Made by a program: the position numbers and the translations under genes. A stretch of DNA of 25,285 nucleotides, from IMG/VR virus record IMGVR_UViG_3300032247_000307, positions 1 to 25,285 of that record. The stretch is one strand, 5' to 3'. Shown here in pieces: positions 2,696 to 25,281 of the stretch; the first letter of the stretch is position 1, and every line of letters starts with the position of its first letter. The notes beneath the pieces were generated by a model, which saw nothing but the letters and a program-made list of their open reading frames with translations, did no database searches and was not told where the DNA came from. This DNA comes from a virus (lineage: Duplodnaviria; Caudoviricetes).

Positions 2696-2985
2696 ACTGG
2701 GTGGTACATTACGTTATTGTTGTCTTCTTCTAGCAGTCTATAGAATATTATAACACGTTCCAATTCTTCTGCCAAGCCAGGGTGGGTTCGTGCGCGACGT
2801 CGAATTTCTCCCCACAGTTTATCTTCTAGTACATGATCGCGTAATGGCCTTCCATCGCCTGTGCGTGGATCAGGTTTATAGTCGTATCCAATCAAAGTAC
2901 GATCAGTCTCGCCAAATTCACGGGCATATACCTCATCTCCGTTACGCTCGTAAATGTAAGTGGCACCAGGTTTAAGTTGTCCCAT
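2692..2985 (-). CDS. Hypothetical phage protein
   Basis: 97-aa ORF with ATGA overlap to the next gene. Confidence 0.75.
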   Translation of the reverse strand: MGQLKPGATYIYERNGDEVYAREFGETDRTLIGYDYKPDPRTGDGRPLRDHVLEDKLWGEIRRRARTHPGLAEELERVIIFYRLLEEDNNNVMYHPV

Positions 2986-4999: not shown

Positions 5000-5681
5000 A
5001 CTGTGTATAATACGACCTTTTAATCAAAGAGTCAAATATTGCGGAACGATCTTGATGAACTATAAGATGGTATCGTGTTTCATTACTATTATTAATTATT
5101 GTATGTCGGTTAGATATGTTTAGCATATAAGATTCACCAACTTGATATGGGACAATTCCATATTTTTCAAAATAAAAATTACACCCACTGGGTTGAGTAA
5201 TAGCAATATTGACTGGGTTCAGACAACCCGGCGGTTCTATGTCCCTGTGTACTGATATTATTCCCCCGGGAGCCAAGGCCATAACTCGCAAACGTGCAAA
5301 ACTATCCGCAGGCCAAACATTACGAAAGTAATTGACTGTAACTGGCATTAACTTCTCTGCTATCCCAGTCCATATGTAAGGCCTAGAGTCGTTGTAGAAA
5401 CTATCTTCCCTAGTTGCATCTTCACTTTTTCCGTGAATACAAAAACTCTTCCACCCTTGGTGATCTCCGTATGTGTCTCTGTGTTCTACTAGATAAGGAA
5501 TAATGTGTAATATTTCTTTATGAATTTCTTTTACTGGTAATTCTATATCTAACTTTAGCCACGGTAATTGACTTTGACTGACTATCCATTCTGCATCAGC
5601 CGTTGGATTGTAAGTGGGCCACGGCCCAACAGCCTTAATAAAATTACGGGCAGCTAGTTCACTTATCTTCTTAATATCCAT
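4977..5681 (-). CDS. Aspartyl/asparaginyl beta-hydroxylase-like Fe(II)/2OG oxygenase
   Basis: RLRVMALAPGGIISVHRD (HxD) ... NISNRHTIINNSNETRYHLIVH (distal His, Arg). Confidence 0.75.
   Translation of the reverse strand: MDIKKISELAARNFIKAVGPWPTYNPTADAEWIVSQSQLPWLKLDIELPVKEIHKEILHIIPYLVEHRDTYGDHQGWKSFCIHGKSEDATREDSFYNDSRPYIWTGIAEKLMPVTVNYFRNVWPADSFARLRVMALAPGGIISVHRDIEPPGCLNPVNIAITQPSGCNFYFEKYGIVPYQVGESYMLNISNRHTIINNSNETRYHLIVHQDRSAIFDSLIKRSYYTQYASQINN
5007..5035 (-). promoter_or_regulatory. Sigma70-type promoter for the helicase (probably leaderless mRNA)
   Basis: TTGACT-17 nt-TATTAT-7 nt-ATG, embedded in the 3' end of the upstream gene. Confidence 0.6.
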
Positions 5682-6826
5682 TTAGTACCGTTATTAATTT
5701 GTTCCAACTCCGCGTCGGTGTGCTTTAATAAATTATATTTGTAATCTAATATGTTTGACATCCATAAGTCAAATCCACTCATTTTGGTTTTATTTAAAAA
5801 ATCAATAATACTAGAATTAGTAAAAGAGAGTGTAACTCGGTGTCTAGTAGACCATAATTCAGCAAAATCTATGTTATATTCACGACATTGATTGTTGAAT
5901 ATTTCGTTAACTGTATTTTCTATGTAACCCGGATTAGATAATCGCAATTCCTCAAGTCGATCTATAGATTTGTCTAATTGAAGATTTTTTATTTTATTTT
6001 GTTTAACAAAATCTGCAACCCTCTTACCATAATTAACACCATCCCATGTGTTCCAAATCTCTTGACTAAACTCAATCTGTGTTTTACTTATGTCAACCAA
6101 ATCAATATTTGTAATTGACCGGTTTACTAGATTAAAAATCCAAAACAACCCACTTGCCGGTGTTACTAGTCTAGTATTCTCTGTTGGTATATTTAGGATC
6201 TCATTATTGAAAATCCAAAACTGTGATTCTGCAAGAGCAAAATAGTCAGTTTCTTCTGCAATATATTGTTCTATGTTCTCAGGAAGGTATATAAACTTTT
6301 TATACTCTCTAAGTTGTTGATGAAAGTTAACTACTATTCGGTTATTACTTAACTGCCGAGCAATCAGATGTTCACCAAAGTGTTCACTAACACGCATGTT
6401 ATGCCCCACAGTGGCTTTGATCCACAACGGAGTATATGTGTCATGTATATTACCTGCACTGCGTTGTACGGCGGGTATAGTGTAGTCTCCGGTACATCTA
6501 AAATCAGCGATATCAAATAACGCCAACTCAAGATAAAAGCATTGCTGATGAAGATAATAGGTCGCACCATCTTCTACTATATGTCCAATTAATCCCTTAT
6601 GTGGATAATTTTTTAATAAATCAGCAAATCGATCCCAGTCCGAGAAGATGGTGCCCGAATCAACAAACAAGGCATGAGTATGGTTAGTGTGTTTGGCCTG
6701 TACAAATCCGTCTTGCCAATTACTACAAAATATAATATCTAGAGGTCTCCGGTTGCCAAATTTTTGGAAACGTATACTGCTTAGTGTAATGTTTTGATTT
6801 GGTCCCGAGCGTATTACAATGATCAT
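5663..6826 (-). CDS. Hypothetical protein
   Basis: 387-aa ORF overlapping both neighbours; no family recognised with confidence. Confidence 0.75.
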   Translation of the reverse strand: MIIVIRSGPNQNITLSSIRFQKFGNRRPLDIIFCSNWQDGFVQAKHTNHTHALFVDSGTIFSDWDRFADLLKNYPHKGLIGHIVEDGATYYLHQQCFYLELALFDIADFRCTGDYTIPAVQRSAGNIHDTYTPLWIKATVGHNMRVSEHFGEHLIARQLSNNRIVVNFHQQLREYKKFIYLPENIEQYIAEETDYFALAESQFWIFNNEILNIPTENTRLVTPASGLFWIFNLVNRSITNIDLVDISKTQIEFSQEIWNTWDGVNYGKRVADFVKQNKIKNLQLDKSIDRLEELRLSNPGYIENTVNEIFNNQCREYNIDFAELWSTRHRVTLSFTNSSIIDFLNKTKMSGFDLWMSNILDYKYNLLKHTDAELEQINNGTKWILRR

Positions 6827-7623
6827 TTTAACGTGAGCCTAACTATTTTATCATTTGCTTTTAATAGATCTTTAAATTTTTCTATATCAGTTATATGGCC
6901 AATTGGTATTCTACCAAATATTTCCCGTTCAGACCAATCCTGCAGTCCCCAGTAAGCACACCATTGATCTTTAAATTTACCAAACCAAGTGTGAAACAGG
7001 GAGATGTCATGCGGAACTAAATCAACATCATCCAATAGAATTTTTATCTTAGGTTTAAATGTTAGCCAGGGTTTTGCTAATTCACACATACGGGTAATAT
7101 CTACAGGCTCACCATCTGACCAATATGCATATGGGGTTTTCCCTAATTCTGTCCAATCGATACAACAATCACCTATACTGAGATCAGTAGTAATTAAATC
7201 TAAATGATCTTGCGTGATGGGTTGTTCTACTTTCCCGCCGATCTCTCTATAATTAATTAATGCATGAACATTTTCCGATGTATGTTCAAGTTTAATATGC
7301 TCAATTACATGGATAGCTTCATGAAAGTGCAACCAATCATTGGTACCATCATATCCGGTTTCATAAATTTGATGTAACTTGTTTAGATCCGATTGAGTAA
7401 AGGGTAATTCTGGTAATGTGATATTTAATCTAGATGCATATTTTGATAATTCGTTAACTGCATCCTGCATGTTCCAATTATACGGATTATCAAATATGTA
7501 TTGAGGAATATCCACATGTTGTAGATGTTTTAACATAGCAACATATGTGCGTGTGGCCGCATTGTCTAATAAGTTAATTATAATTTGATTCTTTGATTCA
7601 AATTTAATGAGTATACTATCCAA
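6823..7623 (-). CDS. Hypothetical protein
   Basis: 266-aa ORF with TTG start; LNKLHQIYE...FHEAIHVIE His/Glu helical motifs suggest metal binding. Confidence 0.75.
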   Translation of the reverse strand: MDSILIKFESKNQIIINLLDNAATRTYVAMLKHLQHVDIPQYIFDNPYNWNMQDAVNELSKYASRLNITLPELPFTQSDLNKLHQIYETGYDGTNDWLHFHEAIHVIEHIKLEHTSENVHALINYREIGGKVEQPITQDHLDLITTDLSIGDCCIDWTELGKTPYAYWSDGEPVDITRMCELAKPWLTFKPKIKILLDDVDLVPHDISLFHTWFGKFKDQWCAYWGLQDWSEREIFGRIPIGHITDIEKFKDLLKANDKIVRLTLK

Positions 7624-8806
7624 GTCGTACTACTTTTCTTGGTTTATTTCCGGGGCCGCCGGTTGCTCCATATATGTCTGCAGCAATGTATACAATCTTT
7701 TCACTGCGTTGAGTCATAATTTGTTTATCGCCGCCAAATATCATTCCGGCGCTGGTCACTAACATTGGTATACGATCTAAGTTCCTAATGGGCTTGCTAA
7801 TATGTATAAACTTCACTCCGTCGGGAATAGCAGGTCTTTTATCTAGTATTACAGCGACGTCTTGGGATGGATATAATTTTGTAAGTTGCGACAATAATCG
7901 ATTACTGAGATCTGGTTCATATACTACTACCGGTAATCGATTGGTTGCAATAGAATATTCTAACACACTTGCAAAGTCGCTGGCAACTGTGTTTGTGTTT
8001 GGAGTAATCTGTACTTCTCTATGTTTAGATAAAGTTAGATACCGAGGACCCCACTGCTTGATAACCACATCCGATAATGCCGGTTCAATTGTATAGCCCA
8101 ACACTCCGGAATGATCTATTAGTTTAAGTACATTATCGTGACCGAATCCACCCAATTTATTTTCAATATGTTCACGCAGTGTGTCTGGGCAGTTGGTTAT
8201 AGATAACTGATCTTTGTCATAAACCAATTCAATACGATGCGGTGTGCGCTCTTGTGCCAGTATTAATTCATTTATAGTTTCAATTTCTTGAGTAATTTCA
8301 AAATTATTTGCTTTTGCCCAAGTATAAATCCAATTTAGATTATACTCTGTTAGTGCCACAGTCCAAACTTTTAATTCTCGATTAAACACACAAGACCCCT
8401 GGCTGGAGTTTCGGAACTCACGTAACGTTTCGATTAATTTTGAATTGTAGGGAAATTGTAAAATTATTTTATCGTTACTGATTGACACTCGGTGCGAGTA
8501 ATCCATTTTACGCAACAACATTCGCCACACCGGATTCTCAATTGGGGTTACATCAATTCCCTTTGATGCAAATTGCCGTTGATACTTTAATAGTATCTTA
8601 CATAGCAATGTGCCTTGTTTTTCAGTAAGTGGTTTGTTGTTTGCAGTGGACTCACTCATGCTGGTAAGCACATCCACATCATATCTAGCTAAACTAATAA
8701 TTGGAGTAAATCCAAGAAACCATGCACTTGTTAGTTTACCTGTGGCCACATCACGCATACCGGCCAACACTTCAAGGTAATCTTCAACGGTATTAAAAGT
8801 TTTCAT
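7616..8806 (-). CDS. Hypothetical phage protein with possible HARP-like segment
   Basis: 396 aa; LQFPYNSKLIETLREF...FNRELKVWTV resembles the FxY...W signature of HARP-type ssDNA-binding domains. Confidence 0.7.
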   Translation of the reverse strand: MKTFNTVEDYLEVLAGMRDVATGKLTSAWFLGFTPIISLARYDVDVLTSMSESTANNKPLTEKQGTLLCKILLKYQRQFASKGIDVTPIENPVWRMLLRKMDYSHRVSISNDKIILQFPYNSKLIETLREFRNSSQGSCVFNRELKVWTVALTEYNLNWIYTWAKANNFEITQEIETINELILAQERTPHRIELVYDKDQLSITNCPDTLREHIENKLGGFGHDNVLKLIDHSGVLGYTIEPALSDVVIKQWGPRYLTLSKHREVQITPNTNTVASDFASVLEYSIATNRLPVVVYEPDLSNRLLSQLTKLYPSQDVAVILDKRPAIPDGVKFIHISKPIRNLDRIPMLVTSAGMIFGGDKQIMTQRSEKIVYIAADIYGATGGPGNKPRKVVRLG

Positions 8807-18546: not shown

Positions 18547-18575
18547 ATTTTAACAGATTTACACATTTGTGTCAA
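18547..18575 (-). promoter_or_regulatory. Sigma70 promoter
   Basis: TTGACA-17 nt-TAAAAT, with TGn extension. Confidence 0.75.
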
Positions 18576-19834
18576 TTGATAAAGGACATGTCCAGATCAA
18601 TAAATTGTCCGTGTATTGATCTATAATCCAGTACGGTGTTGCTATCACTGAGCACCTGACTAACATGTGCCGCAGAATTGTAATCGGGTCGTGCTCCGAT
18701 AATTAAATTATCTTCACCAACGATACCCGGTAGCTGGCGCAATATCTCACCTAGTTGTTGCTGCCATTTTATTCCACGTTCATCTAAAATTTTAAGTAAG
18801 GGCCCTTCAATTGACATATGAAACCCCCACTCACTTTGCTTATGGCACTGCCACATCTTAGGATCAAAGTATTGGTATAACAATTGTTTAATAGCGTCCT
18901 GAACATATCTAGACATTTTTAAATCAAATCTATCATGCAAACTTGTTGAACTAGAGTGTGCTTTATATACCAATGGATCTTGTTTGCATAGAATTAATAA
19001 CTCGTACCACCCACGGATGGCTAATTCGGGCAGATTGGGAGTCCAATAAAAAAACTCCCATGTTTGATTTTCTTGGTAACCCATGCTCTTTCGGGGATAT
19101 GCACATATACGTAATAAACCTTCAGGAAAGAATCCTAGAGCAGATTGCATATCGTTATGAATAATACATGGCTTGTCAATGCCTTGCAACACACACCCAT
19201 TTTTGTTACCAACGTCTTTTAATAGTTCGGGATGGCGTGATAATGTAATGTGCCTACCAAACCAAAATCCCGGCTTTGTCCGACTTTCCTTATACAGTGT
19301 TTCAATGTCACTATCTAAGTAAGCATTGATCGTAGTTTCGATCCACGGGATTTCGATTAATTTTGTATTGGGATTACGCGAACAAAATGCTCTAGCAAAC
19401 GGTAATGCCGCATACTTAATTTCGCTGTACCAATTTTCGGCTTCAAGTGAGTCTGCAGAAGTAACTGTATCTAACTCAGGAACTACATAGATTGCAATGG
19501 CATCAATATGAATTCCTTCTCTTTCAAAAATATTAAGTATATTTTGACTATCCCACCCACCGCTATATAGTACAGTAATATGTTCGTATTGGGCACGTAG
19601 TTGTCTAGCACGTTGAACATATAGAGTATCCAAACTCATATTTCTCCAAAGCCCCAAATCGTGTGCTTGTTTAAACACATCGTCGTAAAACTGCCACGTA
19701 ACTTTTTTATTGGTACGATTAGATTCTATAAAAGCTTCACTATTATTGTAGAATGTTTTATCACCTACATAATAATTACCAAAGGTTCCGTACATGACAT
19801 CACCGGTACTATCGGGAGTATTGGTCCAATTCAT
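18572..19834 (-). CDS. PP-loop (adenine nucleotide alpha-hydrolase-like) protein
   Basis: VLYSGGWDS PP-loop; RARQLR, GIDKP, EFFYWTP. Confidence 0.65.
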   Translation of the reverse strand: MNWTNTPDSTGDVMYGTFGNYYVGDKTFYNNSEAFIESNRTNKKVTWQFYDDVFKQAHDLGLWRNMSLDTLYVQRARQLRAQYEHITVLYSGGWDSQNILNIFEREGIHIDAIAIYVVPELDTVTSADSLEAENWYSEIKYAALPFARAFCSRNPNTKLIEIPWIETTINAYLDSDIETLYKESRTKPGFWFGRHITLSRHPELLKDVGNKNGCVLQGIDKPCIIHNDMQSALGFFPEGLLRICAYPRKSMGYQENQTWEFFYWTPNLPELAIRGWYELLILCKQDPLVYKAHSSSTSLHDRFDLKMSRYVQDAIKQLLYQYFDPKMWQCHKQSEWGFHMSIEGPLLKILDERGIKWQQQLGEILRQLPGIVGEDNLIIGARPDYNSAAHVSQVLSDSNTVLDYRSIHGQFIDLDMSFIN

Positions 19835-23317: not shown

Positions 23318-23356
23318 AACCTTAAAATGAGTTAATTACGTCTATCATCACAAAAT

Positions 23357-23621
23357 GCTCTGGCGTCCCTCGGCGGTAATTATATCGCATCAGAAATTTG
23401 GTCAGCAAGTTTTATCTCACCAATTAGTCTTTCATCACACACGACCTCCACCCGCTTCCCGACAGGGACCGTTCTCGTATTGCTAACGCCGGTTAGGTTG
23501 GACCGCACATACATCCATGTTCAATCATGGCTTCTGTGTGAAACTTTTCCGTTTCAGAACCACCCGTGCATGTCATTGCACTTCTCATCGTCTGGGTCAG
23601 ACTATCCAGTGACGCTGGAAC
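23357..23621 (-). ncRNA. Candidate structured ncRNA (~265 nt) immediately 3' of tRNA-Cys; possibly related to the GOLLD 3' domain
   Basis: Ends pair (GTTCcaGCGTC / GACGCcaGAGC), many internal helices, GC-richer than flanks, no credible ORF. The family assignment is a guess. Confidence 0.65.
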
Positions 23622-23625
23622 GTTT

Positions 23626-23800: not shown

Positions 23801-24961
23801 TTACTTATCGTTTAAGCTGTTATTGTATGTGAATTCGATTTTACTGTCAACATGTTTTTTCATGATATTTTCAAAATCTTCAAGTTTTTCTGCTTTGGGC
23901 GCACAGTATCCACATATGCATCGTTCTTTTGCACATTGTATAACTGGCATCTTGTTTGAGTCAATATCTTTTTGCAACGTTTCTAGGATAGATCTGTAGT
24001 CTGCAATATTGCCAATTGGCCCAACTGTTCCATCTATACGCATACGACAATCTTTATTTAAAAATACATCGCCGGTTAATTGTCGTACAAACAAAAAATA
24101 CCAATTAACACTACAATACCAATTAGAAAAATCATTGGCTGGCATAAACGCAACCGGATTGGCCAACTCTTGATTACCACAGAGTTTGCGTCCCCCGCAA
24201 CAACTTCTACCAACATCCCCCACGGTTCCGGAGTCTACTAGATTCATTACATCTGCAATAATGTGCTGACTCTTGGTAGATGTTTTTGATTTGTAATATT
24301 TTTTAAAGAACATAAATTGTTCATTATTATACTTCCACTCGGGGGTAGGTCGATCATTGGCTTTAACAATATGTTTAATATTGTTTTGTTTACAAAATTC
24401 AATTGTATCTTGACTAATCTGCCATTTGCTGGGATCGTTATGCATAACAAACACTACCTTTTGATTTCGGCCAATGCTTTTATTATAAAGTATATTATCA
24501 CGAACCTGTTGATGCTGTTTAGGTAATGCCTCACTATGAAAGCTAATAGTAAATTCATCAATGAGTTCTGAAACTCGTTGCCATAAATTGACCCCGGCTA
24601 CTGCATTTGTAGTACAAGTAACTGTCAATGGCCAATCGTATTTTGTGTGACGTTCTCGTACCTGTTCAAGTATATACTCAATCTCGGGATGAAAAATGCT
24701 TTCGCCGCCGTATACATTAAGAACTACCATTCTCTGCCATTTGGGTTTCAACTTCATGTATTTGTCTGCATACTCATACATAAAATCAATTGTACGTAAA
24801 CACTCCTTTAGTGGAGGATGATTTGTGCTATTATCATGGCCTACGCCTACTGGACAATAACTACAGTCCAGGTTACACTTCATCGTAAGTTCCCAGTCTA
24901 ATAGAAAAGTTGGTCTATTAGATGGGTCAATTGCTGGTTCAATGGATATAATTTTTGTCAT
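23801..24961 (-). CDS. Radical SAM protein with Cys-rich C-terminal (SPASM/Twitch-like) extension
   Basis: CNLDCSYC (CxxxCxxC), GGE, TTN, SFHSE; C-terminal CC...C...C...C...CxxxxCxCxxC. Confidence 0.9.
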   Translation of the reverse strand: MTKIISIEPAIDPSNRPTFLLDWELTMKCNLDCSYCPVGVGHDNSTNHPPLKECLRTIDFMYEYADKYMKLKPKWQRMVVLNVYGGESIFHPEIEYILEQVRERHTKYDWPLTVTCTTNAVAGVNLWQRVSELIDEFTISFHSEALPKQHQQVRDNILYNKSIGRNQKVVFVMHNDPSKWQISQDTIEFCKQNNIKHIVKANDRPTPEWKYNNEQFMFFKKYYKSKTSTKSQHIIADVMNLVDSGTVGDVGRSCCGGRKLCGNQELANPVAFMPANDFSNWYCSVNWYFLFVRQLTGDVFLNKDCRMRIDGTVGPIGNIADYRSILETLQKDIDSNKMPVIQCAKERCICGYCAPKAEKLEDFENIMKKHVDSKIEFTYNNSLNDK

Positions 24962-24972
24962 GTTATTAATTA

Positions 24973-25254
24973 TCTATAAAAAGGTTGGACATATAAAATC
25001 TGCTTTTCAACCGCTGATCGTTGCATGGCAAGTAATTAACTCACTCACTAAGTAAGTTCAAACGGTGACATGCCGTAACCTCGCTTACTTGTTTCTTCAC
25101 GAATTCTTGGCCATTCACAACTTTAAAATCAATTTGCCGCCTCGGGGGTTCCCGATACTTAGGTCACGGGCTGCTTTTCTCAGGCAAGTTGTTGTTACTA
25201 GACCTCCAACAGGTATCAGATAGCTGCCTTGCTTATGTCCAACTTTTTTATAGA
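24973..25254 (-). ncRNA. Candidate structured ncRNA (~280 nt) closed by a 21-bp terminal stem
   Basis: Inverted repeat 24973-24993 / 25234-25254 (20 of 21 match), nested helices, no ORF; directly downstream of -10 and boxA. Confidence 0.65.
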
Positions 25255-25257
25255 CAA

Positions 25258-25269
25258 TGTTAAAGAACA
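25258..25269 (-). promoter_or_regulatory. boxA-like antitermination element
   Basis: TGTTCTTTAACA versus rrn boxA TGCTCTTTAACA (11 of 12), 6 nt downstream of TATAAT. Confidence 0.7.
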
Positions 25270-25275
25270 GCAATC

Positions 25276-25281
25276 ATTATA
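25276..25281 (-). promoter_or_regulatory. Sigma70 -10 box heading the ncRNA/tRNA region
   Basis: TATAAT; the -35 would lie outside the window. Confidence 0.55.

Follow-up and report, generated by a model that had tools for sequence, protein, structure and literature searches.

A conserved, structured RNA from the tRNA regions of jumbo phages, with a self-complementary loop that may mediate its self-association

When examining a 25,285-nt contig of a T4-like jumbo phage (the whole virus record, hereinafter the window), we observed a gene on the minus strand, at 24973-25254, for an RNA with a conserved, covarying multi-junction fold that is located in or near a tRNA cluster and has no fixed neighbor gene. 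That this is a real, well-folded and so far uncatalogued phage RNA appears to us nearly certain. As for its role, we give about an even chance to the interpretation that it is a stand-alone, trans-acting RNA of the phage tRNA operon, representing an uncatalogued family, that dimerizes or oligomerizes. In a more specific and distinctly more tentative version of this proposal, which we consider possible and on balance doubtful, these RNAs would constitute a compact self-assembling class, with less than 300 nt, that forms an RNA-only dimer or cage through a kissing interaction of hairpin P9 and acts, possibly as a catalyst, on the tRNA or translation machinery of the host.

The genes of the window, almost all of them on the minus strand, include those for a UvsW-like helicase, endonuclease VII, dCMP deaminase, sugar-pathway proteins and five tRNAs. 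The helicase shares 48-54% identity with its counterparts in cultured jumbo phages, for example, Phosso, Atu_ph07, PA5oct and GAP32. Among the carrier relatives, those with a completeness of 90% or more span 320-374 kb, and the sequencing runs containing the stretch are mainly freshwater or lake metagenomes (20 rows from 13 studies). In one carrier phage, G003, a GroEL-like chaperonin gene (538 aa; L487, 4413-6399, together with a small adjoining ORF) has its closest matches in the plasmid collection, with 74% identity, among Burkholderia entries, a weak hint that the host of this carrier might be a betaproteobacterium.

The element is closed by an inverted repeat of 21 bp with one mismatch (24973-24993 and 25234-25254; extendable to 25 bp at 92%). 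This repeat, already reported in a first-pass annotation of the sequence, is confirmed here as the only one in the window with at least 21 bp, at most one mismatch and a span within 400 nt, and none of 50 shuffled windows contained its like. The gene, delimited by the closing stem, would extend from 24969 to 25258 on the minus strand. The strand is indicated by the wobble pairs: when the 28 core pairs are read on the minus strand in 25 sequences, there are 24 G-U cells versus a single A-C cell. Compared with shuffled sequences, the whole element folds with z-scores of -5.0 on the plus strand and -3.7 on the minus strand, and the interior alone scores -0.54, with 52 of 200 shuffles folding as well, so that homologs were needed to decide on the inner helices. 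The description of this stretch as free of ORFs is not strictly correct because two 52-aa ORFs overlap the element, although a gapped alignment, inspected by eye, gives no sign of their conservation.

Homologs were gathered from the surroundings of relatives of the downstream radical SAM gene (see below), by scanning viral and metagenome contigs for motifs and by whole-record model searching. The pattern scans yielded 32, 19, 98, 8, 38, 29 and 44 stretches, the majority of them chance matches, and homologs were told from chance using nhmmer and model R1, which was trained on 17 sequences, the window among them. Altogether, 25 distinct homologous sequences besides the window were identified, on 30 phage or metagenome contigs; counts out of 26 given below refer to these 25 and the window. 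When applied to 100 sources, model R1 scored exactly the 25 homologs known at that stage (99-233 bits; the window, as a training sequence, scores 136.7 bits) and none of the other 75. About 18 homologs remain at an identity cutoff of 85%, pairwise identity has a median of 55%, and over the core, no other family member exceeds 58% identity to the window. The homolog tree separates group 1 (12 rows, one of them the window) from group 2 (14 rows) with a support of 99/99, and the window itself appears to be a divergent branch of the family. There is one copy per genome in the five records in which a whole-record search found the RNA. The RNA is not universal, being absent from five of the nine near-complete records searched, some of which are unrelated phages.

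Partial searches of bacterial genomes, plasmids and cultured phages detected no homolog. A motif from the 3' part of group 1, which would miss group 2, had 23 matches in bacterial and archaeal genomes, none of them homologous among those tested; model R1, under strict filters and without a positive control, gave nothing in a sample of 151 genomes from a single bacterial class; and eight named phage records, seven of them from the cultured jumbo phages with the closest helicases, had no R1 match, with the positive control detected in one search. Comparisons by blastn returned short chance matches only, both for three homologs and the window against 50,697 phage records and for the window against plasmids. 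A 9-mer that is repeated in the window, when used as a pattern, retrieved 120 stretches, and the 80 that were examined with their flanks included no homolog. One candidate from Chthoniobacterales (L448) resembled the 3' half of the element and was rejected, as its 5' side is where a 337-aa dehydrogenase-like ORF ends.

The window has no match in Rfam 15, either at the gathering threshold or at E-values up to 10, and in the homologous loci, nothing was matched over the element at gathering (20 loci) or at E up to 10 (13 loci), bar an overlap of sX4 with the edge of one element (21.8 bits, E = 2.2). These results agree with the earlier failure to match the element to tmRNA, RNase P, SRP or 6S RNA. 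In the portions of the literature covered by our search, there is no description of this RNA; the 10,006 viral candidates of PMC10690425 (Fremin et al. 2023) could include part of it, and motif terms had no match in three of the six supplements of that paper.

Strong covariation bears out the first-pass annotation of the element as a structured phage noncoding RNA, and the comparison of homologs recommended there was decisive in its favor. In an unfitted MAFFT alignment of 25 sequences, 95.3% of the 1239 cells of 50 base pairs in seven helices are paired, and double changes are found in 33 of the 50 pairs, compared with 77.6% paired cells in shuffles (none of 500 as high as the real alignment) and 34-42% in slid alignments. 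The alignment fitted to the model, which leans towards the structure, has 92.1% paired cells over 47 pairs.

The architecture of the RNA is nested throughout (all coordinates are on the minus strand). The stalk P1 (5' arm, 25234-25254; 3' arm, 24973-24993) is identified by the inverted repeat and by covariation, with 96.7% of the cells paired and double changes in 19 of 22 pairs; it leads to a junction with the short hairpin P1a (25222-25233; 98.6% paired, double changes in all three pairs in the fitted alignment) and on to P2 (25217-25221 with 24998-25002), which is paired in 100% of the cells and has a double change in one of its five pairs, the others being near-invariant. A conserved 2x7-nt internal loop, the A-rich strand of which is at 25003-25009 in the alignment, separates P2 from P3 (25206-25214, with one bulged base, and 25010-25017; 99.4% paired). 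One P3 pair occurs as C-G, U-A, A-U and G-C, and at a second P3 pair, the only double change comes from the window. Beyond P3, a three-way junction gives rise to a long arm and to P7. The long arm starts with the short helix P4a (25201-25204 and 25109-25112), which was obtained with an optimizing script and by eye and is weaker than the other helices, followed by a motif that we take to be loop E-like (AGUA at 25196-25199 opposite GAA at 25114-25116; both sides exact in 19 of 25 sequences) and by P4 (25191-25195 and 25117-25121), with double changes in all five pairs and 94.4% paired cells in the structure-fitted alignment, and 76% in the unfitted one. The upper arm (25122-25187) consists of P4.1 (25184-25187 and 25134-25137, placed by eye only), P5 (25169-25171 and 25139-25141, from the script and the fitted alignment), the hairpin P6 (25142-25155; 100% paired, one covarying pair) and a conserved U/A-rich linker (25122-25129). 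P7 (25100-25102 and 25018-25020; predicted by RNAalifold, double changes in all three pairs) encloses two variable hairpins, P9, discussed below, and P8 (25050-25090), a long hairpin variable in both length and sequence that was delineated in the alignment by eye and by laying the model on the window.

No pseudoknot in the family model is supported by covariation, and a pseudoknot that was initially envisaged as joining the 3' core to the P1a strand was abandoned when further homologs gave the nested P2 and P3. The loop of P1a may touch the loop of P6, given that they can pair at two positions in 25 of 25 sequences, with one covarying pair that reflects a single change on the tree. For the window sequence, the comparative model has an energy of -61.9 kcal/mol versus -85.2 kcal/mol for the single-sequence minimum, a lower stability that would be expected if tertiary contacts matter but that is also a caution.

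The sequence motifs listed in the first-pass annotation are all present where it had placed them, but only three of the inner helices fit the comparative model, namely, 25142-25155 (P6), 25050-25056 with 25084-25090 (P8) and a 4-bp tip at 25062-25076. The strands of the helices 25027-25031/25134-25138, 25182-25186/25225-25229 and 25190-25194/25207-25211 either pair elsewhere or are not conserved, judging from the alignment by eye and from the model laid on the window, and both loop-loop pseudoknots fail likewise, their strands being paired elsewhere in the covarying model or located in unconserved stretches. The 9-mer that occurs twice on the minus strand is real, and its copy at 25000-25008 is found in 25 of 25 sequences, but the second copy is present in only one of the 25, that of the window.

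The family is closely associated with tRNA genes, which are found within the examined flank in 25 of the 26 loci; in the remaining one (L471), the nearest tRNA of the array is about 3.6 kb away. A -10 hexamer is located 1-18 nt upstream of 17 of the 26 copies, accompanied by a -35 element in 12; seven copies start 0-2 nt behind the CCA of a tRNA; and two show neither a promoter nor a CCA clearly. In the window, the -10 hexamer (25276-25281, minus strand) is 17 nt upstream of the stem, and the -35 position is beyond the end of the contig. The element had been described as the first one after a boxA promoter. A boxA-like site is indeed there (25258-25269, minus strand, with one mismatch to what we take to be the boxA consensus), but it has counterparts in only three of the 26 copies and so is not a family feature, and the contig includes no more of the promoter than the -10 hexamer. 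This rarity, together with the copies that start directly behind a tRNA CCA, undermines the analogy with rRNA precursors, in which boxA is followed by an RNase III-processed stem.

Downstream, tRNA-Leu or tRNA-Thr is found within 20 nt of 11 of the 26 copies, and the others precede unrelated ORFs, in one case an ORF on the opposite strand. The downstream neighbor in the window is a radical SAM-like gene (386 aa; 23801-24961, minus strand; Pfam Radical_SAM, E = 1.3e-5, which is below the curated cutoff), followed by tRNA-Leu and tRNA-Cys; among 54 loci of relatives of this gene, the element is nearby in three. The neighbors differ across the homologs, and the gene is a local neighbor and not a partner of the family. 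Given the varied neighbors on both sides, the RNA travels within the tRNA region as a single unit and has no fixed cis target, and since no neighbor gene is fixed, the RNA probably acts in trans. The tRNA upstream of the RNA is a tRNA-Ser with the anticodon ACT in four loci (L422, 2372-2461; L436, 2372-2461; L400, 2619-2705; L404, 2114-2200) and GCT in three others. In L392 (approximately 2772-2815, minus strand), L373 (approximately 2205-2250) and L383 (approximately 2200-2245), the promoter before the RNA is an inverted repeat of 14-15 bp that spans the -35 to -10 spacer and is a possible operator or hairpin.

Metatranscriptomes, suggested in the first-pass annotation as a source of evidence, gave a partial answer. 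Two of them, from different studies, contain near-identical contigs at a depth of 3.6-4.1, one (X3) corresponding to 24933-25234, with one different letter and a 4-nt gap, and the other (X19) to 24991-25155, with one different letter; one of these contigs runs 29 nt into the downstream gene. The RNA may be transcribed, but the contigs reveal neither strand, nor ends, nor level, and carry-over of DNA is possible; the lack of cover over the neighboring protein genes in the RNA runs was not counted as evidence. The RNA is presumably stable and processed.

A feature of the family that suggests self-association is in the loop of P9 (25025-25048, minus strand; loop 25033-25039, with a 6-nt palindrome in the window), where the central dinucleotide (25035-25036) is the proposed kissing site. 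The paired changes in the window's own P9 stem (25031/25041 and 25033/25039) that are seen in a close relative from DNA run X4 support the hairpin itself. The dinucleotide is self-complementary in all 26 sequences (GC in 13, CG in seven and AU in six), compared with 9, 6 and 4 of 26 at neighboring P9 positions and with a mean of 9.8 and a maximum of 20 of 26 in column shuffles. The loop axis was derived from the stem alone, the dinucleotide being the central one in odd loops and the one immediately 3' of the axis in even loops, a rule that for even loops was fixed after the sequences had been inspected. The tree requires three changes of the dinucleotide, each of them a double change, for which the chance probability is about 0.04 if any double change is allowed; a cruder earlier test on 15 distinct loops, with loops defined by RNAfold and two sequences misplaced, gave p values of 0.02-0.04 for palindromes. 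The palindrome extends to 4 nt in 13 of the 26 sequences and to 6 nt in five of the six AU types; the X4 relative no longer has the outer pair of the 6-nt palindrome seen in the window. None of the 185 adjacent column pairs of alignment A4 behaves like this dinucleotide, and no intramolecular partner columns were found for it, the best outside the loop reaching 14 of 25.

Adjacent bases of one RNA chain cannot pair with each other. Paired changes of adjacent bases are the pattern that PMC12286853 used as support for intermolecular kisses, and from the same pattern in P9, we infer a homodimer or oligomer. The precedents described there are a GC/CG switch in L21a of GOLLD and palindrome switches in L9.3 of OLE, with the intermolecular kissing loops seen by cryo-EM; hence the signature is known from GOLLD and OLE (PMC12286853), and what is new here is the self-complementary dinucleotide of P9. 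On the strength of the three events in the tree, self-association of the RNA through a P9 kissing loop seems to us as credible as its opposite, and a kiss of 2 bp may be too weak without other contacts.

GOLLD and ROOL are ornate phage RNAs of unknown function, often found near tRNA islands, that self-assemble by A-minor contacts and kissing loops, the symmetric kisses showing palindrome-switch covariation (PMC12286853 and PMC5737381). The present RNA is similarly phage-borne, located near tRNA islands and devoid of a fixed cis gene, and it shares with these RNAs and with OLE, for which an RNA-only dimer with a kissing loop switching between palindromes has been reported (PMC12286853), a predicted symmetric kissing loop with palindrome-preserving covariation, present here as a sequence signature. 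Unlike GOLLD and ROOL, which are approximately 580-800 nt long, the members of the family have 257-302 nt, a closing stalk of 16-27 bp, no pseudoknot supported by covariation and a single candidate intermolecular contact; OLE, for its part, is bacterial, protein-bound and larger, whereas the present RNA is found on phage or metagenome contigs only and has no Rfam match. The GOLLD and ROOL models do not match the element, and the search evidently works for GOLLD, which it found at other places in these loci. Specifically, GOLLD is present in the tRNA regions of two of the three carriers scanned (L001, 5308-5774, 198.8 bits, 2.9 kb from the RNA; L488, 460-921, 191.7 bits), each match overlapping a tRNA call.

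In the scenario that we propose, the RNA would be transcribed from its own sigma70-type promoter or within a tRNA polycistron and would be excised by host tRNA-processing nucleases, with the long P1 stalk protecting it. Two copies would pair via the self-complementary P9 loop, tertiary contacts would come from the loop E-like motif, the A-rich linkers and the near-invariant P2/P3 core, and the working form would be a homodimer or a larger RNA-only assembly, as is the case for GOLLD, ROOL and OLE. Conceivably, and this is a guess, the target of such an assembly during infection is an RNA-binding protein of the host or a part of the translation machinery, which it would bind or sequester.

Alternatively, the RNA could work as a monomer, serving as a scaffold or decoy to which a protein of the host or the phage binds, such as RNA polymerase, a ribosome factor, a nuclease or a defense sensor, and the P9 pattern would be a protein-binding or chance feature; we regard this as unlikely, albeit a possibility to be taken seriously. 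The invariant pairs in P1, P2, P3 and P6 suggest sequence-specific recognition, the trans-acting context is compatible with such a role, and T4 offers a parallel in RNAC and RNAD (species 1 and 2), the stable RNAs of its tRNA cluster, which are late RNAs of unknown function from the same kind of locus (PMC9697503). These two RNAs resemble the present one in their placement in the tRNA region but are shorter (139 and 119 nt), and model R1 had no match in the RNAC/RNAD region at E up to 10. A monomer, however, leaves unexplained the concerted change of adjacent loop bases that keeps them self-complementary, and no co-occurring protein was found: the 32 ORFs that are common to four carriers and missing from two non-carriers simply follow kinship, and RVT_1, TROVE and RtcB are absent from four near-complete carriers and one non-carrier (in the control for RVT_1, it was detected in three of 14 genomes). 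A scan of 46 ORFs for an RNA-processing domain gave nothing obvious except for one WYL_2 match.

It is rather improbable that the family is a new class of ribozymes that cut themselves out of, or process, the phage tRNA precursor. Such an activity would suit the compact, near-invariant core formed by P2, the A-rich internal loop, the bulged P3 and the loop E-like motif, as well as the closeness of tRNAs, with seven of the 26 copies beginning 0-2 nt behind a tRNA and 11 ending within 20 nt of one, and there is a precedent in the theta (HDV-like) ribozymes that adjoin the 3' ends of phage tRNAs (PMC10879173). The theta ribozymes, however, are minimal double pseudoknots, whereas the present RNA is far larger, is mostly promoter-led and has no match to an HDV-like model, nor does any class of self-cleaving ribozymes in Rfam match it at E up to 10. 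Moreover, the majority of the copies are preceded by a promoter rather than a tRNA, and where there is a tRNA junction, it lies outside the 16-27 bp stalk, at a distance from the core. One X3 contig joins 25013 to 25206, that is, the two strands of P3, skipping 192 nt, which could be taken as a product of cleavage; this joint, with 21 letters on its short side, comes from one contig, was not found in the other three runs compared and fits a reverse-transcriptase jump on the folded RNA, real excision or an artifact alike.

We consider it very unlikely that the RNA is a diverged member of, or a stand-in for, RNase P, tmRNA, 6S, SRP, Y RNA or retron RNA, notwithstanding the similar size and the long closing stem. 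With bacterial RNase P RNA, it shares a similar size range, a long closing helix and a helix with one bulged base, P3 resembling in shape the P4 of RNase P (3 bp, a bulge and 4 bp). In RNase P RNA, the conserved regions I and V form the P4 pseudoknot, whereas P2 and P3 of the present RNA are nested, the conserved regions and the order of the P4 pseudoknot are missing, and there is no Rfam match. In 6S RNA, two long stems flank a large central bubble to form a rod, in contrast to the multi-junction fold with a 2x7-nt internal loop seen here, again with no Rfam match. The absence of RVT_1 from the four near-complete carriers speaks against a retron msr-msd RNA, and that of TROVE and RtcB against a Y RNA; the only YrlA score, 21.8 bits, was over the flanking tRNAs. 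A tmRNA has a tRNA-like domain ending in CCA and a reading frame for the tag, and ARAGORN called none over the element. The idea that the RNA replaces tmRNA was dropped since the two coexist in the same genomes, permuted tmRNAs being present in two of the four carriers as well as in both non-carriers. In the latter survey, the permuted (two-piece) tmRNA genes of four of six related jumbo phages are at L501, 876-1270; L530, 11983-12379; L556, 5566-5893; and L570, 16894-17230.

The gene context largely refutes the notion of a cis-acting leader (a riboswitch or translational control) of the radical SAM gene, to which we attach very little credence: in the window, the stem does end 7-11 nt before the start codon, but this is the only one of the 26 copies that directly precedes this gene, 11 precede tRNAs and one faces an ORF on the opposite strand. 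A MITE or another DNA-level element, a possibility raised in the first-pass annotation and suggested by the terminal inverted repeats and the variable genome position among the phages, can be practically dismissed because the RNA is present in a single copy per record (five records), the G-U bias marks one strand, the arm sequences diverge and yet stay paired, and there is no consistent target-site duplication, the shared flank words of 2-6 nt having no fixed length and the 6-mer of the window not abutting the repeat.

The large orphan RNAs of phage tRNA clusters, T4 RNAC and RNAD, GOLLD and ROOL, have no known job, and how common RNA-only multimers are has been stated as an open question (PMC12286853). 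The family described here is small enough for synthesis and mutation, has a well-supported fold and yields a sharp prediction, namely, that assembly is controlled by whether two loop bases are self-complementary. Should this hold, a compact and unrelated RNA-only assembly would be added to those already described, and the question of why such RNAs are carried by jumbo phages would become tractable.

Several further features of these phages are recorded here. In G003, a tRNA with the CTA anticodon, called as tRNA-Pyl (L481, 16114-16189), is far from the main array and is a possible amber suppressor. The window contains several genes of 234-420 aa (18572-19834 and 5663-8806), most of them without a Pfam match, and the product of the 420-aa gene is similar, by eye, to that of the long ORF that lies upstream of the L001 tRNAs. 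Finally, behind tRNA-Cys, the window has a second ORF-poor stretch (23320-23625, minus strand), which has no Rfam match and is covered to a summed depth of 59-150 in contigs of RNA run X3.
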